DNA of 64,000 nt from the IMG/VR virus record IMGVR_UViG_2858635475_000003, positions 1,400 through 65,399 of that record. One strand, 5' to 3'. The position numbers and the translations under genes were made by a program. Positions 22,376-59,165 of the stretch are shown here, piece by piece. Each line of letters opens with the position of its first letter. The first letter of the stretch is position 1. This DNA comes from a virus. The notes beneath the pieces were generated by a model. It searched no databases and was not told the DNA's origin. It saw only the letters and a program-made list of their open reading frames with translations.

Positions 22376-22555
22376 ATGACGAAAATTGAAAAGTGGGCTG
22401 CGCGTGTTTTTGATGACGCTAACCGCCTTCTAGCTGAAAAGATTTGTGTAGGTGAAGTGGTCGCACGAATTGAGGGAGATCGTCTGTTGAGACGGCAAAA
22501 TCCTAAGGCAAATGCGCGACTTTTCATTGCCCCAACAGGGGAATTTTTCGAATGA
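22376..22555 (+). CDS. hypothetical small protein
   Basis: GGGAG SD with an ATG at 22376. Confidence 0.35.
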   Translation: MTKIEKWAARVFDDANRLLAEKICVGEVVARIEGDRLLRRQNPKANARLFIAPTGEFFE

Positions 22556-24894: not shown

Positions 24895-25026
24895 CACGGC
24901 TCGGAAAACTCAAACGCCCCGTGCCGGCGAAAACCGAAACGAGGCGTTCTGAGGGGTCATGGTGATAGGAGGCGGGGACCTGCCTTCCGAGACACGAGCA
25001 ACATACCAGAAACCGGATCGAGCGCA

Positions 25027-25077
25027 ACAACTGTTTGTGGATTTTCGCATTGACTTTATCAACAAAATGTTGATTAT
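25027..25077 (+). promoter_or_regulatory. tandem pair of dyad motifs (CAACtgtttGTGGATttt ; ATCAACaaaatGTTGATtat) upstream of the BRCT gene
   Basis: Representative of the motif family found at more than 30 gene starts. Confidence 0.5.
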
Positions 25078-25114
25078 CGGATTAAAGATTGAACGCGAGC
25101 CCGAGGAGTCGGCG

Positions 25115-28519: not shown

Positions 28520-29137
28520 ATGGGTACGCAGAACCGCATCAAATGGGATGATCGAAGTGTTGCCACGGCGAGCAGCCTGTGGGCCAGCGGCAAGTCCGTC
28601 ACCGATCTCGCGAGGCATTTCGATGTCAGCCGCAGCACCATCTCAGGCATGATCCTGCGCAACCGGGAAAAGTTCGAGAACCGGTCACGGGCTCCGGTTC
28701 AGCGAATTGAATGGAGCGAGCAGAGCATCGACAAGGCGGTTGCTCTCTGGAAGGAAGGCCGATCGGTCCGCGAGATTGCGGAAAACCTCAACGTTCCGAC
28801 CAGCCAGGCGAACGCCGTGATCTATCGCAACTATCGTGATCGGTTTCCGGTTAGATCGGGGAGCCGCAAACCGCCAAAGCCGGTCGGAGCGCCTGAGGTC
28901 GCCACGTCGTTCGTAAGCACCCAGGCGTCCGAGCGCTACGACTTCACGCAATACCAGATCGAGGGCACGGAACCGGTGCCATACTGGAAGCTCTCAGGCA
29001 GTCAGTGCCATTTTCCCCTCGAACGCTTTGAGGCTGTCAGCGGTCCCGAGACGCCGTGTTGCGGCCAGGGCAATCTCGAAGGGCGGTCCTACTGTAACAC
29101 CCACTGGAAGCTGATGCATGAGGTGAAGGTGCGATGA
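28520..29137 (+). CDS. GcrA-like cell-cycle regulator homologue with duplicated N-terminal DNA-binding domain
   Basis: Two GcrA-N-like repeats (W-DDRSV..LW.SGKSVTDLA..FDVSR.TI.G ; WSEQSI..ALWKEGRSVREIA..LNVP). C-terminal FCG/PYC-x-TH-like block (CCGQGNLEGRSYCNTHWKL). Confidence 0.7.
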   Translation: MGTQNRIKWDDRSVATASSLWASGKSVTDLARHFDVSRSTISGMILRNREKFENRSRAPVQRIEWSEQSIDKAVALWKEGRSVREIAENLNVPTSQANAVIYRNYRDRFPVRSGSRKPPKPVGAPEVATSFVSTQASERYDFTQYQIEGTEPVPYWKLSGSQCHFPLERFEAVSGPETPCCGQGNLEGRSYCNTHWKLMHEVKVR

Positions 29138-31461: not shown

Positions 31462-31587
31462 ATGGCACTCAGGCTTATCGGCGCTTGTGTCGTCGTCACT
31501 CTGATCGCAATCGGCGCAACCTGGTTGCTCAACAATGTCCGCATCAAGCGGAATAACCGTCGCCCAAGGAGGGGCAAAACAGAATGA
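31462..31587 (+). CDS. 41-aa single-TM peptide coupled to the SPFH gene
   Basis: MALRLIGACVVVTLIAIGATWLLNN + basic tail. Preceded by the dyad motif; ATGA overlap with the next gene. Confidence 0.4.
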   Translation: MALRLIGACVVVTLIAIGATWLLNNVRIKRNNRRPRRGKTE

Positions 31588-32447
31588 ACCCTGCGTCTAT
31601 CGTCAAAACTGTTTTCTTTGGTCTGATAGCCATTGTCGCCGCTTCCGTCCTCGGCGGATCATTTTACACCGTCGATGAGGGCGAGCGCGCCGTTGTGGTC
31701 AGCCAAGGCAAGGTCTCCGGTGTATCGGCGCCTGGATTCCACTGGAAGGCTCCATTCATCACCGACGCGCATATCATCAGTGTTCGCACCCAGGCGATCG
31801 AGTTCAAGGACGAGCCGGTTTACACAGCAGACCGGCAGACTGCGACCGTAACGTTCTCGGTCAACTATGCGGCCACGCCCACAGATGCAGAGATCACCAC
31901 TCTATATCGTGAATTTCAGACTCTCGACGGCATCGAGACCCGCGCCCTGAAGCGTCAGGTTCGCGAGCAGATCAAAAACGTATTCGGCACATTCACGGCT
32001 GACACCGCTATCCGCGAGCGCGGCCGGCTGAATACTGAGGTTAGCGCGACCATTGCCACGCTCGGCGAACCTTTGATCAAGATTGAAGGCGTAAACATCG
32101 AGAATATCGACTTCTCCGACGCCGTCGAGCAGGCAGCCGAAGATCGCGCCAAAGCGGAAATGCTGGTGCAGACCGAAAAGCAGAAGCTTGCACGCGAAAA
32201 GGTGATCGCCGAGATCGCGGTCACACAGGCTCAAGCGCAGGCTGACAGCCAGGTCGCCACCGCCAAAGCAAATGCAGAAGCTGTACGATTGAACGGTGAA
32301 GCCGAGGCGGCCGCTATCAAGGCGAAATCTGACGCACTGGCATCGAGCCCCAACCTGGTCGAACTCACCAAAGCGGAAAAATGGAACGGCGCACTGCCCA
32401 CCACCATGGTTCCGGATGCCACCCTCCCCTTCATGCGCATGAACTGA
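31584..32447 (+). CDS. SPFH/band-7 (prohibitin/HflC-like) membrane protein
   Basis: N-terminal TM then an SPFH core (FYTVDEGERAVVVSQGKVSGVSAPGFHWKAPFI...), followed by an Ala/Glu/Gln-rich coiled coil. Confidence 0.75.
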   Translation: MNPASIVKTVFFGLIAIVAASVLGGSFYTVDEGERAVVVSQGKVSGVSAPGFHWKAPFITDAHIISVRTQAIEFKDEPVYTADRQTATVTFSVNYAATPTDAEITTLYREFQTLDGIETRALKRQVREQIKNVFGTFTADTAIRERGRLNTEVSATIATLGEPLIKIEGVNIENIDFSDAVEQAAEDRAKAEMLVQTEKQKLAREKVIAEIAVTQAQAQADSQVATAKANAEAVRLNGEAEAAAIKAKSDALASSPNLVELTKAEKWNGALPTTMVPDATLPFMRMN

Positions 32448-36125: not shown

Positions 36126-36298
36126 TGGATCAGCCCATCTACCAGCGCATCGTGACGGAAAGTCATCTGGATGCGGAATGCCAGAAGTTCGTCGAGCGCG
36201 AGTTTCCGAAAGCCGTGCGCGCCGTGAACCGGTTCAGCGGCAAGGCCAATCCACCGGCTGCCGTCAAGTCCGCGGAGGGTCGTCCCGATGGTCGATAA
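36126..36298 (+). CDS. hypothetical small protein
   Basis: AAAGGAG SD. Confidence 0.35.
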
Positions 36299-36533
36299 CA
36301 GGGTTTTCGAGCGCATCAAGAACACGATGGTCAACTGCCAGCAGTTCCCGGCCGACCTGATCACGCCAGATGCGTCGATCGACAGTCTCGGCGGCGACAG
36401 CCTGGACGACATCGAGTTGGCGATCCTGCTCGAAGATGAATTCAACATCGAGATCAACGACGGTGCGTTCGACGTGAAGACGCCGATCTCGCAGATCGTA
36501 ACAGCAATCGAAGGGATCATGGCGGATGGCTAA
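36288..36533 (+). CDS. acyl carrier protein-like protein
   Basis: Phosphopantetheine-attachment signature [26 protein letters not shown] (cf. [20 protein letters not shown]). Confidence 0.65.
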
Positions 36534-36813
36534 GATCGGTCACAACAGCGGCGATGAAGACGACATCATGGGCACGACGGAGACGGTTGCTGCCGCCGAG
36601 CTTCGCCAGTTCGTCGAGCGGGTCGAAAGGCTGGAAGAAGAAAAGGCCGCCATCCAGGGCGACATCAAGGATGTGCTCGGAGAAGCCAAGGGTCGCGGCT
36701 ACGACACCAAGGCAATCCGCACCATCATCCGCCTGCGCAAGAAAGATGCGAACGAGCGGATCGAGGAAGAAACCATTCTGCAGACCTATATGGCTGCGCT
36801 CGGGATGGAGTGA
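36526..36813 (+). CDS. GapR-like nucleoid-associated protein (DUF2312/UPF0335)
   Basis: [70 protein letters not shown] matches the conserved GapR core. Confidence 0.75.
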
Positions 36814-37029: not shown

Positions 37030-37241
37030 TGGCACAGCCGTTCTGGAAACGGGCACTTCTCGTCACAATCGATATCGGTGCGCTCGTGGCAGTAATCCTT
37101 TTGCTCTCGGCTTTGATCGCCGCGGTGCTGACCATCTCGCTACCAGTTCATGAGGATTATCTTTCTGTCTTGCGACGGGTCACGCTTCTGAACGCGGCTT
37201 TTGTTGCAGCGAAACTGTTCTTTGGTTGGGTGCAGAAATGA
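37026..37241 (+). CDS. hypothetical membrane protein
   Basis: Two hydrophobic helices. Confidence 0.4.
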   Translation: MMAQPFWKRALLVTIDIGALVAVILLLSALIAAVLTISLPVHEDYLSVLRRVTLLNAAFVAAKLFFGWVQK

Positions 37242-37444
37242 CCCCCTCTTTCGTCGAGCGTTTGAGAGACAGCGGGTTTACCCACATTTCGTTCGACCTG
37301 TCGAAGGCTGTCACGATCACGGCTTGGCGGAAGACGGAGCGGAAGACATACAGTGCCTACATGGCGCCTAGTCTGGCTGCCGCAGAAGCGCACATCCTCG
37401 CTCAACTGAAACCTGAACCAGATTTTTCGGATGTCCTCGGATGA
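37238..37444 (+). CDS. hypothetical small protein ending DFSDVLG
   Basis: C-terminal tail motif; ATGA-coupled. Confidence 0.4.
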   Translation: MTPSFVERLRDSGFTHISFDLSKAVTITAWRKTERKTYSAYMAPSLAAAEAHILAQLKPEPDFSDVLG

Positions 37445-37680
37445 GCGCTGATTTTCAAAAGTCCATCACGTTCTCGATCATGAGCGCCAAGGTCGAAGCG
37501 TTGGAAGACGCCATTCGTGCCATTCGCAATGCGCGGCAAGGCTTCCTTGAAGGAATACTCGGCGGCGAGGACATCGACGATTGCATTGACAGCGCGATCG
37601 AGTTGCTGCCGGAAAACGTGAAGCCAGACCGACGCAAGCAGCTAAAGCCCAAGGAGCCGTTCGATGACGTTCTCGGCTGA
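37441..37680 (+). CDS. hypothetical small protein ending PFDDVLG
   Basis: C-terminal tail motif. Confidence 0.45.
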   Translation: MSADFQKSITFSIMSAKVEALEDAIRAIRNARQGFLEGILGGEDIDDCIDSAIELLPENVKPDRRKQLKPKEPFDDVLG

Positions 37681-37956: not shown

Positions 37957-39555
37957 ATGACGACAATCACCCTGCACCCCGGCGATAACATTCTTTCAAT
38001 GAGAGGGATGGCGGAAAACAGCGTGCATAGCGTGGTGACAGACCCGCCGTATATGCTCACAAGCATCGTCAAGCGCTTTGGAAAAGAAGGTTCTGCGCCA
38101 GCCAAGACTTCTGGTAATGACGGTTCTTTTGCACGCCTTTCGGCTGGTTTCATGAACAAACAGTGGGACTCTCCAAGAGTGGAATTGCCGCCATTGAGTT
38201 CTGACTTCGGTCATTACATGGCAGGCTTGATTGACGGGGAAGGATGTTTTCATGTGCATCGGAAACTGGTAAACAACTGTGAGACCTACGACTGCCAATT
38301 TTCAATAACCCTCCGCTCTGATGACAAAGACATTCTCGTGGAGATGCAGCGCCAACTCGGCGGCATAGGCTCCTTGGCTCATCGGCCAGCGCGTGACAAC
38401 GCCAATAGCCAAGCGCGCTTCTGCATTAGCTCGAAAGCACATTGTCAGGTTCTACGGGCGGCTCTAAGCGTATTTCCATTGCGCGCAAAAAAGGCTCGTG
38501 ACTTTGAGATTTGGTGTCATGCACTTGATGCATGGGTCAATCACGAACCGAAATCCTCATGGGAAGACGTGTCTTTCTATCGTGACCAATTGATGATGGT
38601 GAAGCGTTTCGGAAGCCTCTATAAGCCCGAATTCCTTTTCCACTATCGTTGGGCCAAAGAAGCTTTCAGAGTTCTAAAACCAGGCGGCTGCATATTCGCC
38701 TTCTCCGGATCTCGCACTGGCCACTGGCAGGCAGCCGCCATGGAACTTGCAGGTTTTATCATGCATCCTATGCACGGTTGGTGTTTTGGATCTGGAATGC
38801 CGAAGCCTACCAATTTAAAAGGCGTTCCCGGTTACGAGGGGTGGGGTTATGGCACGCAAACACAGAAGCCTGCTCTGGAACCCATATACCTCGGTCAGAA
38901 GCCTTTCAGCGAAAAGACAGGTCCACTTAATGTTTTGAAGCACGGCGTGGGCGGTTTCAATCTTGAGGATTGTTCTGTCCCAAGTGCCAAGGGTGACCCC
39001 CGCCGACCCGCCAATCTGATCCTCGACGGCTCGCCGGAAGTGGTTGCGATGTTCCCTGACTCCAAAGGGCAGCAAGGCGCTGTGCGCGGCGATGAGCCTA
39101 GCGGTGTCACGAAGGATATCTACGGCAAGTTCAATGGCCGCGTTCCAGCGCCAGTCCGTGGTGACAGCGGTTCCGCAGCACGGTTCTTCCACCAGTTCGG
39201 ACCTGACGCCGACCCGCTGATCTATCACGGTAAAGCCGGCAAAACGGATCGCGCTGGCGGCAATCATCCCACGGTCAAGCCGATCGCCCTCATGAAGTAT
39301 CTCATCCGGCACATCACGCCACCTGGCGGCATTGTGCTCGACCCGTTCGCCGGCAGCGGCACCACAGGCGAAGCGGCGAAGCGTGAGGGCATGGACTGCA
39401 TTCTCATGGAAGCCGAGCCCGAATACATCGAATTTCTGGAAAAGCGGTTCGACATCGCAAAACCGGAGTTCGATTTCGACGACATCCTCGGCGAAGCTTT
39501 GCCGATCAAATCAACAAATAGTGGAGATACGTTTCATGACATTCTCGGTGCTTGA
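37957..39555 (+). CDS. beta-class (CcrM-type, DPPY) N6-adenine/N4-cytosine DNA methyltransferase with embedded LAGLIDADG domain and double DxxDILG tail
   Basis: Motif IV VVTDPPYML near the N-terminus and motif I LDPFAGSGTT near the C-terminus (beta order). Between them lies YMAGLIDGEGCF (LAGLIDADG). The C-terminus reads DFDDILGEALPIKSTNSGDTFHDILGA*. Confidence 0.8.
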   Translation: MTTITLHPGDNILSMRGMAENSVHSVVTDPPYMLTSIVKRFGKEGSAPAKTSGNDGSFARLSAGFMNKQWDSPRVELPPLSSDFGHYMAGLIDGEGCFHVHRKLVNNCETYDCQFSITLRSDDKDILVEMQRQLGGIGSLAHRPARDNANSQARFCISSKAHCQVLRAALSVFPLRAKKARDFEIWCHALDAWVNHEPKSSWEDVSFYRDQLMMVKRFGSLYKPEFLFHYRWAKEAFRVLKPGGCIFAFSGSRTGHWQAAAMELAGFIMHPMHGWCFGSGMPKPTNLKGVPGYEGWGYGTQTQKPALEPIYLGQKPFSEKTGPLNVLKHGVGGFNLEDCSVPSAKGDPRRPANLILDGSPEVVAMFPDSKGQQGAVRGDEPSGVTKDIYGKFNGRVPAPVRGDSGSAARFFHQFGPDADPLIYHGKAGKTDRAGGNHPTVKPIALMKYLIRHITPPGGIVLDPFAGSGTTGEAAKREGMDCILMEAEPEYIEFLEKRFDIAKPEFDFDDILGEALPIKSTNSGDTFHDILGA

Positions 39556-39832
39556 AGACGACAATAAGCTGAACCACATCGCCACAGACCTGTCGGCCCA
39601 ACTGAAGGCGTTGACGGACGCCCTGGTGGCGCAAGGCAAGCACGTGACCATCCTCGTCACCGAACAGGACGACCGAGGTGAATTCGAGTATGCTGTAGTC
39701 AGCACGATCGATGATCACGAGGAACTGATGACGATGGTCGACGACGTTTCCAGTGACCTGCTCGCGCCATATGTAGAGGTGGACGAGGACGACCAGCCGG
39801 AACTCCCGTTTAAGACCGAGACTATCCAATGA
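39536..39832 (+). CDS. hypothetical acidic protein
   Basis: ATG preceded by a dyad motif that lies inside the 3' end of the MTase gene. Confidence 0.5.
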   Translation: MTFSVLEDDNKLNHIATDLSAQLKALTDALVAQGKHVTILVTEQDDRGEFEYAVVSTIDDHEELMTMVDDVSSDLLAPYVEVDEDDQPELPFKTETIQ

Positions 39833-40065
39833 GGAAGATCGAGGTCACGCCGTCTGTCGACTGGCCGGTGGGCCGGAAAATCGTTCTGCTCGACGCCTAT
39901 CTGCAGAACCCTGTCACCGTGAAAATCACGCGACACCCTAATGCCGATCACCTGATCTGCGAGGATGACCGCGGTGTGGTCTATTACGCTCGCACCGACC
40001 GAGTTGAAGGTTTTGTGAACGAGCCTTTCGATTCAATTGATGACTTCTCCGACATTCTCGGTTAA
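39829..40065 (+). CDS. hypothetical small protein ending DDFSDILG
   Basis: C-terminal tail motif. Confidence 0.5.
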   Translation: MRKIEVTPSVDWPVGRKIVLLDAYLQNPVTVKITRHPNADHLICEDDRGVVYYARTDRVEGFVNEPFDSIDDFSDILG

Positions 40066-40942: not shown

Positions 40943-41190
40943 GAGCGGCCTCCATTGAAGTTTTTGAGTGTGAGTTCGGCCAGGGTCGTGTTGAGGTGTG
41001 CAGCCTTGCGTTCCATGTTCAGGATCGCCTGGATGAAGTTGGTTTGCTCGCGCTTGCTTTCCGCCGCTAGGGATTTGTTGGGAAGCTCGGCTGCCGGCAC
41101 CTCGCTCACGATCACAACGTCCCGCGTCCTCGGCCGGCTGCGCGGTTTAGGGGCAGATTTCCTCTTGAACCAGTCACACAGTGCCATCAT
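40939..41190 (-). CDS. hypothetical protein
   Basis: 83 aa coupled ORF. Confidence 0.4.
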   Translation of the reverse strand: MMALCDWFKRKSAPKPRSRPRTRDVVIVSEVPAAELPNKSLAAESKREQTNFIQAILNMERKAAHLNTTLAELTLKNFNGGRS

Positions 41191-41543
41191 TTGAGGTTCC
41201 TCTGCACGATCGCCAGCGTGGTGTTCACAGCGTCGGTCGCGTTCTGGATGGTTACGGTGACCTTCTGGATCGCCTCCATGGCGCTCCGCGTTTCCAGAAG
41301 GCGGGTTTCCTGCAGTTCGGCATTCAGCTTGCGTTCTGCGGCAATCTCGATGGCGTGGCGCGTGCGCTCTGCGACCATATCCTCATCGAACTCGTCTCGT
41401 TGCGCCTCAATCTTGGTCTGAAGCTCCGACACCTTCCGCCAAAGCATGATTGCCGAGCCGACCAGGAACAGAACAAGCACGATCGTGGCGACGTGCACCC
41501 CCTGTTTGTCGGCCAGGTCAATAAGCTTGTCGGCGCTTTCCAT
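41187..41543 (-). CDS. N-terminal TM + coiled-coil protein (spanin/holin-like candidate)
   Basis: VATIVLVLFLVGSAIMLW then a long coiled coil. Confidence 0.45.
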   Translation of the reverse strand: MESADKLIDLADKQGVHVATIVLVLFLVGSAIMLWRKVSELQTKIEAQRDEFDEDMVAERTRHAIEIAAERKLNAELQETRLLETRSAMEAIQKVTVTIQNATDAVNTTLAIVQRNLK

Positions 41544-41573
41544 CCAAAAATCCCCAATTAGTTGATTTTGACG

Positions 41574-43268
41574 TCAAACAACGTTGTTGGGAGATACGAC
41601 CAGTGACGTGGAGCCAACCGAAATCCCGCCCGCTTGCGCATAGTTGCTACAAACGTTGTTGGAGATGATCCCCCGGCCGATGCTTCCGGACTCGCGGATA
41701 GCCCAACCCACGTTGAACGCTGCGCCGCCGATAGTGTTTCCTGACACAACGAAGTCGCCGCAACCAGTAAGATCGATGCCGTGCGAACCGGAATTGTTCT
41801 TATTTACATCGCGGACAACATTGTTATCGACATGAAGGTCTCTGACACCATTGAATATGGTGCCGAAATTCCCGCAGGAATAAACCTCCACCCCTTGCAG
41901 ACGAACGTCGTTGGCAGCAGTTTGCCAATTGATGCCGTGGGATTTCAGAAGCTTGATGGCCCCACCCTTGAACTCAATGCCACGCACTGTACGACCGGTC
42001 GCGCCGCCCGCTTGAATACCGATGTTCCCACCAAACGAACCATCGAAATACGTATTGAGAAAGTGCACGTTCTGAATGTTGTGCCCCGGCGTTGCCACCG
42101 GAGTAATGGAAAGCTGCGTATTGTCGGCAAAACCGATATGACCGCCGTTGAACCATACGCCGTCGACCCCTTCGATCAAGACAGCGTTATCAAGCATATA
42201 GTTGTTGCCTGCGTAAGACGCGCCTTTGATGTTGAAGTCGCTGAAGAAGATTTCAGAGAGTTCCTGGGGGGAGCCGTTGTGCGAAGACGACCGGAGCTTC
42301 AACAGGAAGCTACCGACCTTCTTGGATGTCCAACTATATCCCCCACCCAAAAACAGGCCGGGAAACTGGTGACCAAACCCACCCTCGATGTCGAGTGCCG
42401 CGAAGGCATGTACTGCGGCAACTTTGTCGAACACCGGATTGACGAGTTTCTGCAGGAAAAACGCCCGACCTGATGTCGGACCACCTGGACCGAAGTCATG
42501 CTCGATACCGATCCTCGATACGGACACATCGTAGAGGAATTCGGTCGCGGGATTGTTAGGCTTGAAAACCAGTGTATCGCGGTTGCCCTGCTGAGCAAAG
42601 ACCGTTGCGGTGCGGTTAGCACCCTTAATCGTTGAGCCGTTCTTTGTGAACGTCAGGGTGTCATTAAGGAGATAGCGACCGTTCTCAATGGTGATCTCTC
42701 TTTTTTCGCCCGCGTTCATCCATTCTTCCATGTCCTTCAGCTTGAGGGTGTCATCGGTTGAACTGTCACCTTTGGCACCAAAACTGTTCTTCAGGCTGAG
42801 TTGGGAAGCGAATATGGTCCTGAGGACGGCCGGCATTTTCCACCCCGGCACAGCATGGGCAATGTCGGCAATATAATCGCCTGCACCGCCACCCAGGTTC
42901 GCCAGTTTGTCCAGAGTGACGCTACCGGTTGCGGGGAAACCCGTCGACGCAGCTTCAGCGTAGTCTTGCGCCTGATCGCGTGCGGCTTCGGAAGCGTTTT
43001 TGGCAAGGACAGATTCGTCACGGGCAAGCTCGGAGCCTTCTTTCGCATCTACGGCGGCATCGCGGGCGGCCTCGCTTTGAGAAAGAATGTTGCCGGCCGC
43101 GACATTTATTTCGGTATCTTTGTCTTTCAGAAACTTCCGGATAGTTGGAACATTCTGACCGCCGCTCGTGACAAATGTCTGCGTGTCTGAGCCGTTAACA
43201 AAACGGTCAGTGCGATCTTCGTTCTGCTTGAAGCGATCGATGCCTTGCGCAAGAGGTAGTTCGGCCAT
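41574..43268 (-). CDS. tail fibre/tailspike with right-handed beta-helix (pectate-lyase-like) repeats
   Basis: Repetitive N/G-rich beta-helix rungs (NNVVRDVNKNNSGSHGIDLTGCGDFVVSGNTIGG...); N-terminal coiled-coil anchor. Confidence 0.6.
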   Translation of the reverse strand: MAELPLAQGIDRFKQNEDRTDRFVNGSDTQTFVTSGGQNVPTIRKFLKDKDTEINVAAGNILSQSEAARDAAVDAKEGSELARDESVLAKNASEAARDQAQDYAEAASTGFPATGSVTLDKLANLGGGAGDYIADIAHAVPGWKMPAVLRTIFASQLSLKNSFGAKGDSSTDDTLKLKDMEEWMNAGEKREITIENGRYLLNDTLTFTKNGSTIKGANRTATVFAQQGNRDTLVFKPNNPATEFLYDVSVSRIGIEHDFGPGGPTSGRAFFLQKLVNPVFDKVAAVHAFAALDIEGGFGHQFPGLFLGGGYSWTSKKVGSFLLKLRSSSHNGSPQELSEIFFSDFNIKGASYAGNNYMLDNAVLIEGVDGVWFNGGHIGFADNTQLSITPVATPGHNIQNVHFLNTYFDGSFGGNIGIQAGGATGRTVRGIEFKGGAIKLLKSHGINWQTAANDVRLQGVEVYSCGNFGTIFNGVRDLHVDNNVVRDVNKNNSGSHGIDLTGCGDFVVSGNTIGGAAFNVGWAIRESGSIGRGIISNNVCSNYAQAGGISVGSTSLVVSPNNVV

Positions 43269-43280
43269 GGACGCAAACCT

Positions 43281-44201
43281 TTATGGGTAGGTGATGACCT
43301 GGCCGTAATCGGCGTCAGGCATGAAAGTGTTGATGATCTCGTCAAGGCGATCTTCCCAATACGGGAATTCTTCGAGGGTCATCTGACCTCGATCGATGAT
43401 TGCTCGTTCATCGTCAGTGAGCAGCGGGCCAGCCAAACGCTTGACGTACACGAAGTTGGTAAGAGCATTCAGCTTGCGAATATCCAGGTCGAACGAGAGT
43501 TCCTGCCAGCCGTCGCCTTTGAGATCGACTTGAGAGGCTGGCTTCAGACGGACATACGGAAAGAAGTAGCTGACCACCGGCCCGACCGGATTTTTGGAAA
43601 TGTAGCGGAGCGCACCAACAACTTCCTTGGCACTGTCCACGACATCCACAGTGGCGGACTGGCGCCACTGGAATGTGACCGAAAGGTCGTCACCATCAGC
43701 AATCGTCTCCGACTCGTCCATGACGTAGAACCGACCTTCAGTGCGATCCACGATCAGGTTGCTTTCGACATCAAAGGGATTACCGTTACGCAGAAAGGCA
43801 ATGTCTGGCTCAACGTGTCGGATACCAAACGGCTCAACCGTGGTGCCTAGTTGATACCAGCGACCCTTTTTGACTTTGATGACCTCGGTGATGTCGCCGA
43901 TCGCAATCTGTCCGGTTTTGTCCGGTTCTGAGCCGAACCAGAGTGCAATATTGTCCATCGACATGTTGTCGGTGGTTATGTCCGCGCTATGCACCTCGCG
44001 AGTGACCAGACTGTCGATTTGGATCTGCTGACCGCCGTATGACGTGAAGCGTTCAACTTCCTCAACCGTTCTCGATATAGTGAAACCGGGGGTGTTGCCG
44101 AGATAGAGTTCCCCTTCCCCCTTCAACGTGCCCGCAGCGAAACGATCGAAGTAAAGCTCACCTCGACCAATCACCAGCGTTGCATTCGACGTGGTTGTCA
44201 C
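43281..44201 (-). CDS. paralogue of the major tail (tube-like) protein
   Basis: N-terminus LVIGRGELYFDRFAAGTLKGEGELYLGNTPGF aligns with the 56101..56892 product (TLGRGELHFSRFKPGTQIGEGYRYLGNSPEF). C-terminal KGDGWQE block also shared. Confidence 0.55.
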   Translation of the reverse strand: MTTTSNATLVIGRGELYFDRFAAGTLKGEGELYLGNTPGFTISRTVEEVERFTSYGGQQIQIDSLVTREVHSADITTDNMSMDNIALWFGSEPDKTGQIAIGDITEVIKVKKGRWYQLGTTVEPFGIRHVEPDIAFLRNGNPFDVESNLIVDRTEGRFYVMDESETIADGDDLSVTFQWRQSATVDVVDSAKEVVGALRYISKNPVGPVVSYFFPYVRLKPASQVDLKGDGWQELSFDLDIRKLNALTNFVYVKRLAGPLLTDDERAIIDRGQMTLEEFPYWEDRLDEIINTFMPDADYGQVITYP

Positions 44202-45421
44202 AGGGCCCGACCCTCACGGTAAGCCTCGACATACTTGTGAACGGCTCGGCGGCCGAAATAGAAAACGCCTGCGCCGGCAGCGGCCATCAGGAGCCACGGC
44301 AAGAACGGCTGGATCGTTTCGAAGATTGTTCGGACCTGCGTGACACCGTTGGAGATGTCTTCGAGACTGGCAGTACCATCTGTCACGCCGCCGAACAGGG
44401 CGCCGCCGAAAATGGTCATACCGATCTTCTTGAGCCACGAGGCTTCCTTGACGACCGGTTCTGCCTTCAGGTCTTTTTCGGTGGCGTTCTGGCGCGCTGG
44501 CGCCATCTCGCGCTTGGGTGCCTTCACCAATTGCGCAAGAAGCTCATCGGTGATCTCACCGGTCAGCGGCAGATTATTGTCGGCTTGGAACGCCAAGATG
44601 GCGTTGCGCGTGCGCCGTTCGTACTTGTTGTCGGACTCACCAACTTCGGGGTATCCTTTGTCCCACAGAAGATCCTGAACGCGCTCGATCAATTTGGTGT
44701 CTTGCGCGACCGGCTTGGGTTCAGGGACCGGCACATTAACAGGAACGGCAACAGCGTTGTTGGTTTCCGGCGACCAGGGGGTATCCTTGATAGAGCGCCA
44801 CTTGTTATGGGCCGCTGCCATCTTGATGTGATACCGATTTTTCTTGTAACCAGGGCCATTGTAGACACTGACGATCTTTTCGCAGTCCGCTGCAGTCGTC
44901 TTGCGTTTCAATGCAGCGAGCTTGCGGAGTTCGCCATCAATTTTCGCTGAAACCAGAAAATCCACCATAGCCTCAAGGTGGACTGCCTCATCTTCCATGA
45001 AGGCTCGAACCATACCTTGGACGGTTGAGAAACCAACCATTTCGTGGTTCTCGCCGAGGATTTGCCCTAATCCCCAAGAGGTTGATTTTAGCGCCGCAGT
45101 TTCGTTGATCGCCATCGCCTTTTTCAGGCGCGGGTAACTGTCAGCCGGGTAAGGTTTCTCGCCCCATTTTGCATAAGCAAGCCCCTGCTTGACAGCATCA
45201 TCTCGCTGCTTTCCTGTCAGGTTTCTGTAGAATACGTGGGGCTCGAAAAGGATCTTGGGACGCTTTTGCGCGTCGAAACCCGAGCCGCTTGTCTCGACAT
45301 CCATAAATGCGTGAAGTTCGTCCTCACCAACCCTGATCTTGTGGGCGATGCGCGGAATATCGATATCGGTTATGCGCTTGGCTGCGCCTTTGAAGTTGTT
45401 CCAAGCGGACGAGGTGGCCAC
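44198..45421 (-). CDS. peptidoglycan hydrolase (DUF3380-type muramidase-like) with PG-binding domain and C-terminal TM
   Basis: N-terminal muramidase-like domain; PG_binding_1-like block (RNAILAFQADNNLPLTGEITDELLAQL); C-terminal hydrophobic helix. GTG start with an AGGAG SD. Confidence 0.6.
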   Translation of the reverse strand: MATSSAWNNFKGAAKRITDIDIPRIAHKIRVGEDELHAFMDVETSGSGFDAQKRPKILFEPHVFYRNLTGKQRDDAVKQGLAYAKWGEKPYPADSYPRLKKAMAINETAALKSTSWGLGQILGENHEMVGFSTVQGMVRAFMEDEAVHLEAMVDFLVSAKIDGELRKLAALKRKTTAADCEKIVSVYNGPGYKKNRYHIKMAAAHNKWRSIKDTPWSPETNNAVAVPVNVPVPEPKPVAQDTKLIERVQDLLWDKGYPEVGESDNKYERRTRNAILAFQADNNLPLTGEITDELLAQLVKAPKREMAPARQNATEKDLKAEPVVKEASWLKKIGMTIFGGALFGGVTDGTASLEDISNGVTQVRTIFETIQPFLPWLLMAAAGAGVFYFGRRAVHKYVEAYREGRAL

Positions 45422-45474
45422 GGCAAACTCCTATGGTTTGCACATCAATACCACAATTTGTTGATTAATCCACT

Positions 45475-47682
45475 TCAAAGTGTGCGCGACATTGGGAACC
45501 GATACTTTTGGAATGATGTCAAGCCGCCTCGAACTGCTTCAAGTTCGACAAACATGGAACCGGTAAGGGTATTGTCCGACGAGGTGAATGTGCGGAAGTT
45601 CGTAGTGATGCCGGCGATCGTTCGGATCAAAGCGTTGCTCGAACTGTAGAATCTCAGGGTGTAGGTCGTATCCGGTTCAGGGCCTACGCTCGCATCCCAA
45701 TGGCTCACAATCTGGTCCGACTGCATCTTGCGGTCACGATGCGCCCAATCAATCCGAAAACTTGATCCGGCCGCAACATTGTTGAAAGCCGGCGTCGAGT
45801 TGACCGTGACCCCGCCAGGAACGTATGGACGCCCCTGCCGCCCGACAATCGAGAGGGTGTCCGTTGGCGCGAGAGTCGGATCGAGGGTTGCCGACGAGCT
45901 ATTCGATAGCAACTTCGCTTCCACCACATCGCTCGACACGTATTCACGAGAATCGGTTCCGACATACTCGCCGAGGAAGATGATCTGAGCATTGTCAGAG
46001 TGCGGTGCTGGCACCGTATCAACACAGCCCCGCTTCACCGTGAATGTTCCCGCGATCCCCGTTCCATCGAGCGCGATATCCACGACTTGGAGGATTTCCG
46101 TGTCGATCTGCAGCAAGCTACCGGCTACCATCAAGCCCACATCAACACCGCCGTCAAAGGGAACCGTGGTGTCGTAGTAACCGATCGCCCCGTTGCATAA
46201 GGCACCTGGAGCAAACGCCTCGCTTCCTCTGATCGTGAAATCCTCGGCACCGACGCGGGTTGAGATCGAATAATTCAACAGCATCTGTGCCGGTCGAACG
46301 GCGGCTGTCACCAGAGCGGATGAGTTTACGTCAAGGATTGCGAGATCGGCCGGCGTCAACTGTCCAATCAGTTCTTGGTAAGTTGCCTCCCTGACGATAC
46401 GAACCGGGACAACTTGCGGAGTGGAAATCGGCGGAACCCAAGCTGGATTTTCCGGTGAGACGAAAGCAGTTGACGAAAGGCCAAACACATCCAGCGCCGC
46501 CTCAACGGTAATCGTTCCATCCTTCAAGGTGCCATCGTTGATCTTCCCGGCACGTAGCACAAGGTTCTGGATGCCCATGTCCGGATCGGAGATGCGAAAG
46601 ACCTTGCCGGGGTGAATGCGCCATGCTCGCCGGTCCAACTTCACCGTATAGCGGTTCGTGCTTGCAGAAAGGGTTCTCAGGTCCCGTTGCGCGACACGAG
46701 CCGCGAGAGACAGGATTGGAATTCCATCGTAAGTGTTGGTCTTGGAACTCGTGCCTTCATTCGATTGAATGGCTGCCAGATTTTGGGCACGCACCTCTTT
46801 CGAACCGTTGAGAATTACGTCTTTGTATCTGATAATAACCTCGCTTATGGCGTCGGCCTGCGTTGCAGCTTCCGACTGGTCGACTGACAACAAACCCGTG
46901 TTGCGGTCAAACAGGGGAATCTCGTCGACATCATAGTCATCGCGGATCAGGTCTAGGTCCAGAAGGCCGGTCTCACGATTCACGTAAAGCGTTCCGCCAA
47001 TGTGGTCCAACACCTCTTGAATAAAGCTTTCGAGAGAATCCTGGCGGGACCAGCGCATGCAGAGCCCGAAACCCTCATTGAAAAGCGTTGTGGCTGTCTT
47101 GAACCATGTCGCATCACCGATGCGCGATCTGTCGTATCCGCGTCCCCACTCTCTATTGGTCACGCATTCGTACAAGATATGCGCGGCGTTCATGGCGCGA
47201 ATCTGGCCACCTGCGAGCCAAATGGTTGCTAGTTCCGGATGCCAGACAGGACCGTCCCATCCCGCCGTGGTTCGTCGCAAGCGAAAAGACCACTTCTTGG
47301 GGTAAGGGTTCAGCGCGCATATCATGCCGTCAAAGACAACGGTTGCTACGCCGCGAAAATCCGGAACGTCGCCACCGAGAAGCCCTTTGAACCAACTTGG
47401 ATAAAACTGCGAGGCACTACCCATCAGTGCGGTCAGCGAGCCTTGGATACCGCCTTCCGCCTTCTCCCCGCCGAACAAATCTGGCGCGTTAATTGAGGTG
47501 ACCCTGTCCCCTGTTATGGTTGAATCGTAATTGCCCTGCCCCTCCCGATAGGGCCAGGCGGATTTATCCCCCACCTTTATCTGCACGATCTCGTCTACCG
47601 GACCGCGGCAAAGCCCGTATTGGACTGTCATGAAATATCGATAGCCAATGGTTTGGCTTTTACCTTTACCGCCCACGCTCAA
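45475..47682 (-). CDS. host-specificity/central tail fibre protein (GTA g15 / Phage-tail_3-like)
   Basis: Size, position after the distal-tail genes and N-terminal conserved block typical of gpJ/g15-like proteins. Confidence 0.65.
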   Translation of the reverse strand: MSVGGKGKSQTIGYRYFMTVQYGLCRGPVDEIVQIKVGDKSAWPYREGQGNYDSTITGDRVTSINAPDLFGGEKAEGGIQGSLTALMGSASQFYPSWFKGLLGGDVPDFRGVATVVFDGMICALNPYPKKWSFRLRRTTAGWDGPVWHPELATIWLAGGQIRAMNAAHILYECVTNREWGRGYDRSRIGDATWFKTATTLFNEGFGLCMRWSRQDSLESFIQEVLDHIGGTLYVNRETGLLDLDLIRDDYDVDEIPLFDRNTGLLSVDQSEAATQADAISEVIIRYKDVILNGSKEVRAQNLAAIQSNEGTSSKTNTYDGIPILSLAARVAQRDLRTLSASTNRYTVKLDRRAWRIHPGKVFRISDPDMGIQNLVLRAGKINDGTLKDGTITVEAALDVFGLSSTAFVSPENPAWVPPISTPQVVPVRIVREATYQELIGQLTPADLAILDVNSSALVTAAVRPAQMLLNYSISTRVGAEDFTIRGSEAFAPGALCNGAIGYYDTTVPFDGGVDVGLMVAGSLLQIDTEILQVVDIALDGTGIAGTFTVKRGCVDTVPAPHSDNAQIIFLGEYVGTDSREYVSSDVVEAKLLSNSSSATLDPTLAPTDTLSIVGRQGRPYVPGGVTVNSTPAFNNVAAGSSFRIDWAHRDRKMQSDQIVSHWDASVGPEPDTTYTLRFYSSSNALIRTIAGITTNFRTFTSSDNTLTGSMFVELEAVRGGLTSFQKYRFPMSRTL

Positions 47683-47878
47683 ACTCCTTCCGAGCCTGTG
47701 CCGTGACCCTCAGTGCAAGGGGATCGCCCGTGGCTTCCATTTTCTCGATGGGAATTCCGTTGGCGATGAAATCGGACCAGTCGAAACCATGTCGAGAGAA
47801 CCATTCTCTTGTCCCGCCCGCACAAAGATTGGCTGCTCTGATGTGACGCATGAAAACGGTGATGGATTGGTTCGCCAT
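47666..47878 (-). CDS. hypothetical small tail-module protein
   Basis: 70 aa coupled ORF. Confidence 0.4.
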   Translation of the reverse strand: MANQSITVFMRHIRAANLCAGGTREWFSRHGFDWSDFIANGIPIEKMEATGDPLALRVTAQARKEFERGR

Positions 47879-47879
47879 G

Positions 47880-48185
47880 TTACTTCTTTCCGCCGCCAGA
47901 TTTTATTGCTGATGTACGCAGATTGCCGTACCAGAGGACAAACTGGTCCTCAGTCCAAACGTCACCGAAAACAACGGGCTGGGGCGTTCCCTCGTCGAAT
48001 TGAGGGAAGTCGAATTCTTCGAGAGAAGCAGGCTTCTGAGCCTCTGTTTTGGGTGTCAGAAGAACCTGGATAGCGTAGGATGCGATCAGCATCCCCAAGC
48101 CCCAAAGGAAGTTGATGAATGCGTAGACCGGCTTGATCTCGCCACTTGCAATCATCTCGACGCTCAATGTTTTCAAATCACTCAT
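47880..48185 (-). CDS. hypothetical tail-module membrane protein
   Basis: Start at the internal Met (MSDLKTLSVEM) overlapping the upstream stop (ATGA); one TM. Confidence 0.45.
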   Translation of the reverse strand: MSDLKTLSVEMIASGEIKPVYAFINFLWGLGMLIASYAIQVLLTPKTEAQKPASLEEFDFPQFDEGTPQPVVFGDVWTEDQFVLWYGNLRTSAIKSGGGKK

Positions 48186-49000
48186 CAGAACACCGGATCG
48201 CCTTGGAACGGTGATTTTCCAGGCATGTGCGGAATGCCACCGAAGTTCGGAAGGTTGTTGAATTTGTTCTTGCAGTCTTCGCGAGTGCGGGAACACCCTG
48301 GATAGGCAGTGATCATGTCACCCGCTTTCAGACCGGCGCCCGTTCCGAAAATGTTGAAGGTCGTGCCAGAATGGTTCTCGATCCCGCGGCGTTCAATCGC
48401 ACCGGCAAACCGAGGCCACTCGATAAAACCATTGGAGAAATGTGCGGCCGGAAAGCCCGCAAGGTCTGACGAGGTTATGACGTTCCCGCTGATTGCGTCG
48501 ATTTCAAACGTCACCCCGTATGAAGCCTTTGGAACTCTGCAACTGATGTCATAGAGGGCGTGCGGGCATTGCCGACCCCAACTCAACCGCAACCCGTTTC
48601 GATTGAAACCGGATGTCAGCATCTTGAGCGAGATTTCGACAGATACTGTGTCGATCTGTTTGCAACTAACCGCGTACCCTACCCACACGATCGGAGCAGA
48701 TGTTTCCCCACGGTGATGGCGCCGGATCAACAGCCAGACTTTTTCGCTTGGTGGCTGCCCGTTGAGCATGATTGCGACCGGGAGTGACTTAGGTAACGTG
48801 ACCTTCATTTCATCCGAGGACGCATCGCCTGATTGTTCGACGCCAGAATCCGTAATGGGTATCGCGATGTAGGTGGTGTCACCAAGCACGGTGTCTTCGT
48901 CGTCAGTTGAGTATTCCCACTTGGCAGTCCCGAACGTAAACTCGTAAAGGGCAATCGGTTCACCAAGGTTGTTCGAGATTTCGATTGCGTCGTGACTCAT
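48185..49000 (-). CDS. distal tail protein (BR0599/DUF2163-like, GTA g13 analogue)
   Basis: Conserved-phage-protein pattern and position between g12-like and g15-like genes. Confidence 0.6.
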   Translation of the reverse strand: MSHDAIEISNNLGEPIALYEFTFGTAKWEYSTDDEDTVLGDTTYIAIPITDSGVEQSGDASSDEMKVTLPKSLPVAIMLNGQPPSEKVWLLIRRHHRGETSAPIVWVGYAVSCKQIDTVSVEISLKMLTSGFNRNGLRLSWGRQCPHALYDISCRVPKASYGVTFEIDAISGNVITSSDLAGFPAAHFSNGFIEWPRFAGAIERRGIENHSGTTFNIFGTGAGLKAGDMITAYPGCSRTREDCKNKFNNLPNFGGIPHMPGKSPFQGDPVF

Positions 49001-49001
49001 C

Positions 49002-50234
49002 TTAGAACCCCGCCAGTGCAGTTCGGAGCGGTGGCGCCGACTTGAAGGTTGCAGCGCAACGAGAGACCCCTTGAGTGTCAGTCACGTGCACGATCTCGAT
49101 CCGGTCTTGGTCCAGGCGGGACAACCTCATGAAGCTGACACGCATCACATCTTCCGGAAGCAAACCTTCCTCAAAAGGCTGATCAACGCCGATAACCTCC
49201 ACGTCGTCATTCAAAACCGTGCTGCTCGTTACGCGGCGGTATTCTCGCCGCCCATCGCAGAAGAAGATTGCAAGATGATCGTGTCCAACTTGAAGTCCGC
49301 CCGACAAGGTGAAGCCGAAGTTCTCGACAAGTAGATACTGGTCGCCGGCCGGCGTCGGATCGGCGAGGCGCATATCGTCAGTGAACGAAGGGAGCCAGAC
49401 ACTCCCCCATCGCCCACGCAGCCCGAACAGTAGTGATTTCAGCTTCCTATAGTCTTGTCTGCCGGAAGAAACCCAATTGTGCTTCTGCGTCGGAAACGGG
49501 ATGCCCGCGATGTCAAAGAATTGCGGGATCGAGGTGTCGTTATCAAGTTCATCCATAATCCGGCTGAACGTGAAATCAGTGTTGTCGCTCTCGTCTGGCG
49601 GTGTGTTGAGAACGTTAAGCCCTCCGTAAACATCCAGATGTGAGACGATTACGGTGTCAGTCACTACATCGTCATTTCGTTCCATTATCCGGAAGTTGAT
49701 CGAGAACGACATCGCGCTGTCGCTGACCTTCCGGAGTGTCGGCTGATCATCCAATCGCGCCTTGCGCACCGGATGGATTTTCGAAAAGGCTTCCCATCCG
49801 CTTTCCAGCGGCGCGGCCAAGGTGATGGTGGTTGACGACACTGCGGAGACTTCCGCGAGTTCGAACTGACGGGCCTTGGCTCCCCCGATGAAGATTACGT
49901 CACCGACGCGGATACCGCCATTGTCCGCAAACGGAATCGGTATTGATGTTGCACCCGCCAGAACGCCGGCACCCGATCGGTAAGACTCATGCCATTGTGG
50001 CAGATAGAAGTTGCGACCACTGTGCGCTTCAAGGAACTGCCGGAACACCTGCCTGTCGTTGTTGCCGACTGCGGAGGTGAACTCGATCGTCTTGCGAGGA
50101 TAGAGGCGCAGCGATCGACGCTGTTCCGCACCTTTCGGCGAGGTTAGAACATCCGTCAGCCACTCAAGGGCTTCCGTATATGTTCCAGCCCAATTCGGCT
50201 CGAAGGTCCAGGTGGGTAAAATCTCAATCGCCAT
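49002..50234 (-). CDS. distal tail protein (DUF2460-like, GTA g12 analogue)
   Basis: Directly downstream of the tape measure; start at the in-frame ATG. Confidence 0.55.
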   Translation of the reverse strand: MAIEILPTWTFEPNWAGTYTEALEWLTDVLTSPKGAEQRRSLRLYPRKTIEFTSAVGNNDRQVFRQFLEAHSGRNFYLPQWHESYRSGAGVLAGATSIPIPFADNGGIRVGDVIFIGGAKARQFELAEVSAVSSTTITLAAPLESGWEAFSKIHPVRKARLDDQPTLRKVSDSAMSFSINFRIMERNDDVVTDTVIVSHLDVYGGLNVLNTPPDESDNTDFTFSRIMDELDNDTSIPQFFDIAGIPFPTQKHNWVSSGRQDYRKLKSLLFGLRGRWGSVWLPSFTDDMRLADPTPAGDQYLLVENFGFTLSGGLQVGHDHLAIFFCDGRREYRRVTSSTVLNDDVEVIGVDQPFEEGLLPEDVMRVSFMRLSRLDQDRIEIVHVTDTQGVSRCAATFKSAPPLRTALAGF

Positions 50235-50285
50235 TGCGCAGCACCATGTCAACCATTTCAGGGTTAGTCAACAAACAGTTGATTG

Positions 50286-55316: not shown

Positions 55317-55609
55317 CAGCCCTTCCTTTTAAGCAACTCGCTTATGTCTTTGGTCGGTTTGGCGCTGGTCGATTCATCATCTCGGTCGTTCGATCCGTTC
55401 AGGTTCTCGATCAGTTCCTTCAGGGCTTCACCGGCCTTCTCGGCGTCTTTCTTTTTGCCGAACGCAGCCACGGCGGATGTCATGACTGCACTCAGGATCG
55501 TGGCGGTAGTTGCGTGATGGCGGTTGACGCGATCCACAACTAGTTGATTTTCTTCCCAAACCTTGCCGATTGTGTAGTGCTCGGCGTTTACGTGACCTGC
55601 TGCCAGCAA
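55316..55609 (-). CDS. tail assembly chaperone frameshift-extension-like ORF (gpT analogue)
   Basis: Frame stays open upstream across the end of the gpG-like gene in the -1 frame; no ATG; TTG annotated. Confidence 0.35.
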   Translation of the reverse strand: MLAAGHVNAEHYTIGKVWEENQLVVDRVNRHHATTATILSAVMTSAVAAFGKKKDAEKAGEALKELIENLNGSNDRDDESTSAKPTKDISELLKRKG

Positions 55610-55647
55610 CTGGCTGAGTTGTCCTCGTAGACCCCAAATCCACTCGT

Positions 55648-56085: not shown

Positions 56086-56100
56086 AGCACGGGCTCCGCG

Positions 56101-56892: not shown

Positions 56893-56930
56893 TCCTTTGT
56901 TGCCAAATCGACAAACGGTTGATTTTTCTT

Positions 56931-59095: not shown

Positions 59096-59141
59096 TTCTC
59101 TGTTCCTTATCAGGGGTTAACTTATCCACAAACAGTTGACA

Positions 59142-59165
59142 TTGGCGGTATGACGTTACCGCCAA
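59142..59165 (-). terminator. perfect 9-bp stem hairpin TTGGCGGTA-tgacg-TACCGCCAA immediately downstream of the major capsid gene
   Basis: Read directly. The stem contains GGTATGAC, which also recurs in the 18300-18440 repeats. Confidence 0.4.

Follow-up and report, generated by a model that had tools for sequence, protein, structure and literature searches.

How does a LAGLIDADG endonuclease domain come to lie within the coding sequence of a phage DNA methyltransferase, and does it move from phage to phage? The question is raised by a gene in a 64,000-nucleotide stretch of viral DNA (positions 1,400 to 65,399 of IMG/VR record IMGVR_UViG_2858635475_000003), which is called the window throughout. 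An earlier note on this DNA, made from the sequence alone, had described the gene as a CcrM-type methyltransferase of the beta class that is interrupted by a LAGLIDADG domain, and had offered two options for the insert: a free-standing endonuclease domain fused in-frame, or a degenerate intein. In this report we propose, as a reasonably probable explanation, that the insert is a non-splicing, in-frame homing endonuclease that is fused to a still-functional methyltransferase and that spreads by gene conversion with co-conversion of its flanks. The parts of the gene are as follows, where an arrow in a sequence marks a junction, here and below.

37957..39555, + strand: methylase with the in-frame LAGLIDADG insertion; complete open reading frame (ORF) of 532 amino acids (aa), with the Pfam domains N6_N4_Mtase and LAGLIDADG_1
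37957..38184, + strand: N-terminal methylase "exon", residues 1-76, with DPPY and the FMNKQWD segment; from alignments
38185..38622, + strand: in-frame insertion, approximately residues 77-222, 146 codons; boundaries by alignment with insert-free relatives, WD..IE↓RDPEFW
38218..38523, + strand: Pfam LAGLIDADG_1 core, residues 88-189, motif MAGLIDGEG; putative catalytic Glu95 at nt 38239-38241
38623..39555, + strand: C-terminal methylase "exon", residues 223-532, with RVLKPGG, HPTVKP, and FAGSGTT

The window is a tailed-phage genome in which genes for DNA polymerase, primase, helicase, tape measure, portal, and protease are present. The N6_N4_Mtase domain (PF01555) was matched at residues 228-494 of the methylase (E = 1.5e-28; 100.7 bits vs 26.7). 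Motif IV, DPPY, is found at residues 29-32 (nt 38041-38052) and motif I, FAGSGTT, at residues 464-470 (nt 39346-39366), which is the beta-class motif order in the predicted methylase. The Pfam domains and motif positions bear out the description of a beta-class methyltransferase with a LAGLIDADG domain inserted in its reading frame between motifs IV and I, and the earlier note had placed this ORF and those of two companion genes correctly.

All of the family-invariant methylase residues are kept in the protein, and the C-terminal exon ends with two D-[IF]-LG tail motifs. A model was calculated with AlphaFold2 (AF2) from a 55-sequence alignment with the actinophage row left out (mean predicted local distance difference test score, pLDDT, 75; predicted template modeling score, pTM, 0.69). 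The core strands of the methylase were modeled with high confidence around the insertion. The methylase looks intact and is presumably functional. When the model was used as the query in Foldseek, the beta-class methylases CcrM (6pbd, the best structural match), M1.HpyAVI, M.BceJIV, M.RsrI, and M.PvuII were retrieved. The loop after DPPY (residues 33-76; 38053..38184; LTSIVKRFGKEGSAPAKTSGNDGSFARLSAGFMNKQWD...) is kept across the homologues from proteobacterial phages, and approximately 29 of its residues are missing from the actinophage homologue. Residues 34-77 were predicted to be disordered (pLDDT 32-44); the loop probably contacts DNA and becomes ordered upon binding.

The inserted domain and its relatives

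The LAGLIDADG motif stretch, YMAGLIDGEGCF, is located at residues 87-98 of the methylase. The match to the profile LAGLIDADG_1 (PF00961) scored 44.4 bits (E = 3.2e-11), well over its gathering score of 23.1. Using the insert alone as the query, solved LAGLIDADG nucleases of the I-OnuI family were retrieved from the PDB by phmmer (E = 1.3e-10), and DGEG of the insert (Glu95) is aligned with the catalytic DAEG of these enzymes. The strong LAGLIDADG match, which the earlier note had itself laid open to refutation, survives the profile searches, and the observation was therefore correct, far beyond chance.

At the insertion site the insert-free homologues read FMGKKWDGTGIE-RDPEFW-KLIYDILLPGG, and the window reads FMNKQWDSPRVE-[L77...Y222]-KPEF(LFHYR)W-AKEAFRVLKPGG. 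A five-codon expansion is found just 3' of the insert, beyond the approximately 146 insert codons. The guanine-plus-cytosine fraction of the insert is slightly lower (0.47-0.55 vs 0.51-0.63) and is uninformative. In the AF2 model, residues 82-194 form a confident unit (pLDDT of approximately 90) with the order alpha-beta-beta-alpha-beta-beta-alpha-alpha, in which the motif helix comes first (H82-95, E96-105, E108-120, H121-133, E139-143, E152-157, H160-170, and H177-194). Two helices (residues 203-239) connect this unit back to the well-modeled methylase core. Separately from the methylases, Foldseek retrieved I-OnuI-family nucleases and I-TnaI (template modeling score of 0.72 on the target). 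Like the insert, the enzymes I-CreI, I-MsoI, I-CeuI, and I-TnaI have one motif per chain, approximately 150 aa, the same fold, and an acidic catalytic residue. However, I-CreI-type enzymes are made separately, from group I introns or free-standing genes, whereas the insert is embedded in another enzyme. Judged by its sequence and model, the insert is a single-motif LAGLIDADG domain of the I-CreI-like, homodimer type, for which homodimerization and cleavage are predicted.

The insert is under strong constraint. The proportions of nonsynonymous (pN) and synonymous (pS) differences were determined pairwise, by segment, between the window and the insert-bearing contig L002. For the insert, pN was 0.045 and pS was 0.79, which is saturated, and for residues 190-222 pN was 0.044. 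The values of pN for the methylase exons were 0.035-0.096, and the constraint on the insert is thus equal or stricter. The saturation of the synonymous sites indicates that the insert is old. The blocks DGEGCF and FPLRAKK.RDFEIW are near-invariant across 42 insert-bearing proteins from proteobacterial to mycobacterial phages, and both are also found in gp73 of Mycobacterium phage Hegedechwinu. DGEGCF, including the catalytic Glu, is conserved in at least 95% of the 42 copies. The insert is predicted to be kept functional in the methylase reading frame, as a nuclease that retains its catalytic acidic residue.

A similar element has been described in actinophages. Gosselin et al. (2023) reported a "second" LAGLIDADG endonuclease in nine methylases of cluster-F actinophages, similar to a group I intron endonuclease and predicted to be a separate domain (PMC9957025). 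Neither an intein nor an intron was detectable for this element, and RNAweasel was negative (Arsenault et al., 2025; PMC11855218). The lone LAGLIDADG element of cluster F (for example, Taj gp79) is in-frame in the same methylase family and has the same Pfam pair as the window protein. In BLASTP the window protein is 33% identical to Hegedechwinu gp73 (E = 1e-74), and the two inserts align residue by residue. The insertion site is the same in both, after FM.K.WD and before W..E.LRVLKPGG, and the inserts share the blocks AGLIDGEGCF, PLRAKK, and LM..R. Since the alignment with gp73 runs through the insert at the same site, the window gene belongs to a kind that is already published. Unlike the cluster-F set, with its nine copies that are essentially vertical, the insert described here is widespread in proteobacterial phages, with dozens of copies, and is carried by one member of a presence/absence pair. 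The element and its site are already published; its range in proteobacterial phages, its link to free-standing relatives, and the evidence that it moves are new.

The same methylase family harbors an HNH nuclease (ShiLan) that is likewise in a tolerated position, is not spliced, and is reported to be actively homing. It differs in that it occupies another site and is read in a different frame, from a GTG start to a TAA stop of its own, whereas the window nuclease is in the frame, and in the polypeptide, of the methylase. A search for an alternative-frame ORF inside the insert, as in ShiLan, gave just short antisense ORFs of 46-100 aa, and this reading was rejected. An internal translation start at Met88, ahead of the motif, was likewise rejected as a general mechanism; this residue is unconserved (W, F, or L elsewhere), and no Shine-Dalgarno-like sequence is visible upstream.

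The relatives of the insert itself were collected with phmmer, using the insert as the query in an exhaustive search of 1.84 billion representatives (E ≤ 1e-3). The 2259 matches fall into three groups.

Group 1: embedded at approximately residues 45-230 of proteins of 450-840 aa, as in the window
Group 2: double-motif enzymes of approximately 300 aa
Group 3: free-standing single-motif proteins of 141-170 aa, 36-46% identical to the insert

The proteins of 141-170 aa cover positions 2-141 of the 145 positions of the insert, from IDPAFGHWLAGF.DGEGCF to the C-terminal tail HK.GDSW...L...R.YK. In view of this end-to-end alignment, the insert looks like a complete homing-endonuclease unit, a free-standing gene of this type that was captured in-frame and lacks start and stop codons of its own. 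Free-standing relatives of approximately 150 aa were found as small ORFs on phage-like contigs (L166:1963-2427, protein P0150, and L169:3001-3447, protein P0143). One free-standing relative is a small ORF that overlaps with the beginning of a gene for a class II ribonucleotide reductase, a location that is typical of free-standing phage homing-endonuclease genes, like those of the T4 mob/seg type. In the metagenomic protein P0141 (270 aa), the gene call begins with MAKHWDS at the FM.K.WD position and runs through the insert into the methylase core; this may be a methylase broken in two at the insertion site, or else the gene call may be incomplete.

Intein and intron signatures were sought in the same gene. 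The Pfam profiles Hint, PT-HINT, and Intein_splicing gave no match in the window protein, though the same profiles match the relatives P0057 and P0063. In the alignment of insert-bearing with insert-free proteins, the insert starts with Leu/Pro and ends with Tyr-Lys, with Pro next, and the residues expected at intein junctions are absent: the junctions read ...VE↓LPP... and ...LY↓KPEF..., with no Cys/Ser/Thr nucleophile and no terminal Asn. This confirms that the insert has no Cys/Ser...His-Asn boundaries, as the earlier note had stated. The insert of approximately 146 aa is nearly filled by the endonuclease fold, and the AF2 model contains no Hint beta-fold. True inteins are found in close relatives at three other sites, with Cys1, (H/G)N↓S/T junctions, an LAGLIDADG_3-type nuclease, and a length of 330-400 aa.

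FMGK↓C...TGN↓SWD: intein site in relative P0063, 7 codons upstream of the lone-insert position
GWVFG↓C...TGN↓SGFPK: intein site in relatives P0071, P0089, P0053, and P0010
HP↓C...SHN↓TVKP: intein site in relative P0057

These inteins are also mobile in-frame insertions in conserved motifs of the same gene, but the lone insert has neither their Hint domain nor their junction residues, and it carries LAGLIDADG_1 in place of LAGLIDADG_3. One protein (P0010) contains the lone LAGLIDADG insert plus an intein. For mobile insertions, this methylase gene is a hotspot in Proteobacteria and actinophages alike.

For introns, no Rfam family was matched at the gathering thresholds across the window, and none at E ≤ 10 across positions 37700-39700. 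The insert shows no excess of RNA structure relative to shuffled sequences (folding z = +0.19). Its 438 nt are almost wholly coding and are stop-free in all 42 copies. By profiles, junctions, and folding, the lone insert is neither an intein nor a detectable intron. The option of a degenerate intein does not hold in the face of the missing Hint profile, the missing junction residues, and the contrast with the true inteins of the relatives, and the option of a free-standing endonuclease domain fused in-frame proved to be right, as judged from the Pfam match, the free-standing relatives, and the same contrast.

Distribution of the insert and evidence for its mobility

The LAGLIDADG motif is present in 44 of the 120 best homologues. 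Later counts, based on alignment columns, put the number at 42 in 56 aligned sequences and at 47 in 121, the latter including one intein artifact. In addition to the window, the carriers include the Rhodobacter phages RcAqua, RcAquaphina, and RcMrWorf, and records from Thauera and Bradyrhizobium. The insert-free homologues include prophage copies of Agrobacterium that are 73-81% identical. Scans of virus and genome contig collections returned mostly distant insert-free relatives.

Within the Rhodobacter phages the insert is found in RcAqua, RcAquaphina, and RcMrWorf, which are 3 of approximately 23 siblings; approximately 20 are without it. RcAqua, whose gp52 of 577 aa has the insert, and RcSalem, whose gp52 does not, are 96-99% identical in aligned blocks that span 13 kb. 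Upstream of the gene they differ by 1 substitution in 494 nt, and downstream of the insert by 2 in approximately 700 nt. Between nt 25 and 210 of the gene there are approximately 55 substitutions and 2 indels, which are followed by the insert of approximately 450 nt, and identity resumes exactly at the KPGG codons. The cassette appears to have been exchanged between these nearly identical phages, in a direction that we infer.

A similar tract was found when the window was compared with the insert-free contig L001, which is syntenic with it and elsewhere 87-95% identical in DNA sequence.

37990..39006, + strand: divergent tract relative to L001; blastn blocks stop at 37989 and restart at 39007

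In this comparison the distal C-terminal exon gave pN = 0.018 and pS = 0.335, the N-terminal exon 0.27 and 0.76, and the proximal C-terminal exon 0.18 and 0.77. The segment 37990..39006 is, by its divergence, a putative recombination or co-conversion tract around the insert. The window protein is itself a mosaic. Its identities to the insert-bearing protein P0002 are 88, 91, 94, and 70% for the N-terminal exon, the insert, the proximal C-terminal exon, and the distal C-terminal exon, respectively, and those to the insert-free protein P0017 are 67, 50, and 98% for the three methylase segments. The allele type of the N-terminal exon is tightly linked to the insert, with 85-88% identity to the insert-bearing P0001 and P0002 and 63-67% to the insert-free P0017 and P0018.

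The insert state was also mapped on neighbor-joining trees. The number of Fitch steps was 2 on the tree of the N-terminal exon and 11-13 on that of the distal C-terminal exon, compared with approximately 36 for random placement. The nearest neighbor in the distal C-terminal exon is insert-free for 12 insert-bearing proteins; a thirteenth, P0063, is an intein artifact. The mosaics and the scatter on the trees together indicate that the insert plus the N-terminal exon moves as a cassette among different C-terminal backgrounds.

Competing explanations

The explanation that we favor, a homing endonuclease carried in the mature methylase, would operate as follows. The gene would give one polypeptide, never spliced at the level of RNA or protein, with the nuclease held in a loop between the DPPY strand and the next helix and strand of the core. 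The endonuclease, without a promoter, ribosome-binding site, start, or stop of its own, would always be produced along with the methylase. The active site of the nuclease would form when two fusion proteins pair via their LAGLIDADG helices. In a mixed infection, or with a prophage copy, the insert-free allele would be cut near the codons ...WD-G-T-G-I-E↓R-D-P-E-F-W..., and recombinational repair from the insert-bearing allele would copy the insert along with almost all of the 5' exon and 45-385 nt of 3' flank. Because the insert precedes motif I, a frameshift or nonsense mutation in it would also destroy the methylase, which may help the reading frame to persist.

Domain identity and fold, the absence of intein and intron signatures, purifying selection, free-standing relatives, the presence/absence pattern with its tracts, and the scatter of the insert were computed; several points weigh against the mechanism built upon them. 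Translation of the fusion, its dimerization, cleavage of the empty site, and retained methylase activity are all steps that we infer. The homologues in the scatter test were chosen for their similarity to a mosaic query, and such a choice can exaggerate scatter. Ordinary recombination between alleles, without a nuclease-made break, would leave the same mosaics. The insert, being old, has not gone through the phase of rapid decay that belongs to the classic homing cycle, and a domesticated role would also account for this. No significant palindromic symmetry was found at the empty site (5-7 of 11 positions, where 7 or more are found in approximately 14% of random 39-mers); in 2 of 3 empty alleles the best dyad center falls on the insertion point, a weak lead, since the symmetry itself is not above background. 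The actinophage study saw no strong evidence for transfer of the element (PMC9957025).

Three alternatives can be set against the evidence given above. Removal of the insert by protein splicing, as a non-canonical or degenerate intein, is extremely improbable. The insert is in-frame, lies in a conserved region of an intein-hotspot family, and has a LAGLIDADG domain, as many inteins do, but the endonuclease fold fills its approximately 146 residues and leaves no room for a Hint domain of approximately 130-150 aa; the Hint-type profiles, the nucleophile and Asn junctions, and the LAGLIDADG_3 type are all missing. Were the element instead a group I or other self-splicing intron with its endonuclease ORF in-frame with the upstream exon, its nearest solved relatives, the intron-encoded I-OnuI-family enzymes, would be accounted for. 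In-frame intronic LAGLIDADG ORFs are common in organelles, for example in many mitochondrial introns. We nevertheless regard an intron as very unlikely: no Rfam family is matched, the folding z score is that of shuffled sequence, a ribozyme core of approximately 200-250 nt has no space in 438 coding nt, and purifying selection on the amino acids extends up to both junctions, with no stop in 42 copies. A single-chain enzyme like those of restriction-modification systems, with nuclease and methylase acting on the same short site as a defense or addiction module, is equally hard to credit. LAGLIDADG recognition sites are approximately 18-22 bp in length, and no LAGLIDADG enzymes are known in restriction-modification systems. 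Insert-free siblings are common, and the distribution fits a mobile cassette. The domains for both activities are indeed found in one polypeptide, and this option was raised by Gosselin et al., who advanced the same argument against it, that LAGLIDADG enzymes recognize long sites (PMC9957025).

The main rival to a homing element is a domesticated domain, in which the LAGLIDADG fold would serve the methylase as a DNA-binding or dimerization module, perhaps by aiding target recognition or by rendering it an obligate dimer, and would no longer be a mobile nuclease, the patchy distribution being the result of ordinary allele exchange. Long-term purifying selection with saturated synonymous sites is consistent with such a role, as is the constant insertion site, which adjoins the DNA-facing loop after DPPY. 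The top structural match, 6pbd, is from the beta-class enzyme CcrM, and beta-class enzymes such as CcrM act on DNA as dimers. On the other hand, RcSalem and approximately 20 siblings lack the insert although they are near-identical to RcAqua, and the insert is therefore dispensable for the methylase. Domesticated LAGLIDADG proteins (WhiA, maturases) usually lose the catalytic acidic residue, which is kept here in essentially all copies. The close free-standing relatives resemble classic homing-endonuclease genes, and the pattern of cassette plus flank is that of a homing product. The apparent vertical inheritance in actinophages is a further point for domestication (PMC9957025), which on the whole we consider unlikely.

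A homing element thus remains our preferred explanation. A fuller version of it, to which we would give an even chance, is that the insert is an actively homing element that needs neither intron nor intein, persists in a methyltransferase loop that tolerates it, and is expressed solely as a nuclease-methylase fusion that dimerizes via the LAGLIDADG helices, that it arose by capture of a free-standing gene, and that it spans the phages of Actinobacteria and Proteobacteria. As a bolder extension, the fused methylase may aid in finding the target or may protect the invaded allele.

Methylase specificity, companion genes, and implications

The labels "CcrM-type" and "GANTC-type" that the earlier note had given to the methylase could not be sustained. 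CcrM from Caulobacter (M.CcrMI, GANTC) shares the beta-class order of DPPY before FxGxG with the window methylase, but the C-terminal domain of CcrM has no match in it. The NCBIfam equivalog for CcrM (NF050803) was matched with 60.1 bits against a cutoff of 830, and just residues 432-503 were aligned (positions 181-252 of 350 in the profile), which is the S-adenosylmethionine-binding region that is common to beta-class enzymes. CcrM, M1.HpyAVI, M.BceJIV, M.RsrI, and M.PvuII match the window methylase about equally. An inference of specificity from similarity to CcrM failed on these grounds, since enzymes of differing specificity match equally well, and inferring CcrM or GANTC from motif order alone is unsafe.

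The GANTC sequence is strongly depleted in the window, with 129 sites vs 354 ± 14 expected from dinucleotide shuffles. Among the 16 palindromic pentamers of the form XYNY'X' it shows the strongest depletion, with observed/expected ratios of 0.36 (first-order) and 0.57 (third-order). This depletion could reflect the bias of an alphaproteobacterial host, or avoidance of restriction of the HinfI type, and it cannot be assigned to the window methylase.

The two companion genes named in the earlier note, which lie outside the element, are the following.

28520..29137, + strand: divergent GcrA-family protein with a duplicated N-terminal helix-turn-helix (HTH); Pfam GcrA, E = 1.4e-11, 45.5 bits vs 26.9
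36526..36813, + strand: GapR-family protein; Pfam GapR_DNA-bd (PF10073), E = 1.7e-32, 111.3 bits

The first had been described as a GcrA homologue with a duplicated N-domain. The Pfam match supports the family, and the duplication is evident in an HTH repeat (residues 5-56 vs 61-113, 38% identity, E = 1e-11). The C-terminal C.FP...CG...YC..H is aligned with Caulobacter GcrA. However, the protein is divergent; it scores 27.5 bits against 280 for the NCBIfam GcrA equivalog, and the PDB entries for GcrA are matched weakly (E = 0.13-0.47). The identification of a GapR homologue is well supported by Pfam, by PRK13694 (122.7 vs 94), and by solved GapR structures (E = 4.6e-23), with the score for the Caulobacter equivalog below its cutoff (92 vs 140). 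In the syntenic contigs, GapR is encoded at the corresponding relative position in L001 and L002, and GcrA at its own in L001. A phage GcrA has been reported in phiCbK (PMC3556154), and a phage GapR in Erythrobacter phages of the Casjensviridae (PMC12185513). A concerted "cell-cycle hijack kit" that includes the window methylase is a conjecture.

At least six plausible ORFs of the window share an acidic C-terminal tail, [DE]-F-x-D-[IV]-L-G(-A).

3225..4055, - strand: LDFSDILG
17139..17696, - strand: AQFEDVLGA
37226..37444, + strand: PDFSDVLG
37441..37680, + strand: EPFDDVLG
37957..39555, + strand: DTFHDILGA (the methylase, which also has an internal FDFDDILG)
39829..40065, + strand: DDFSDILG

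The methylase homologues of other phages end alike (..DDILG, ..ELLG). By analogy with tails of the single-stranded DNA-binding protein (SSB) type, the shared acidic tail could be a common docking peptide or a degron. One of the tail-bearing ORFs has a predicted function of its own.

3225..4055, - strand: second putative DNA methyltransferase, 276 aa; phrog_757, E = 1.2e-39; adjoins the DNA polymerase gene

Its product, which carries the DFSDILG tail, has no match in Pfam or the PDB. Accessory genes that are unusual for a siphophage-like genome of approximately 64 kb were found at 12783..14219, 22552..23841, 24959..26467, 31584..32447, and 36288..36533. Their products are an RtcB-type RNA ligase, a HerA-like ATPase (PF05872, E = 4e-111), a BRCT-domain protein, an SPFH/Band 7 protein, and a small phosphopantetheine-binding (acyl-carrier-like) protein that is encoded directly upstream of GapR. 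The nearest named phage for positions 41000..64000 is Rhizobium phage RHph_X2_30 (host Sinorhizobium americanum), with 77% identity over just 26% of this structural region, and the window thus represents a poorly sampled Rhizobiaceae-type lineage that is related to Casjensviridae-like Rhodobacter phages.

Fusion genes such as this one are labeled just "DNA methylase", and annotations of this family should be read with that in mind. Homing endonucleases are thought to survive in genes solely via self-splicing introns or inteins, or else to lie between genes, and this rule is called into question by a nuclease that remains part of the mature host protein. The pair of culturable phages RcAqua and RcSalem makes the homing hypothesis directly testable by co-infection crosses. 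If the explanation favored here is true, this pair would offer the first chance to watch a lone insert home in a system that can be cultured, and the insert would represent a third, splicing-independent lifestyle for homing endonucleases.

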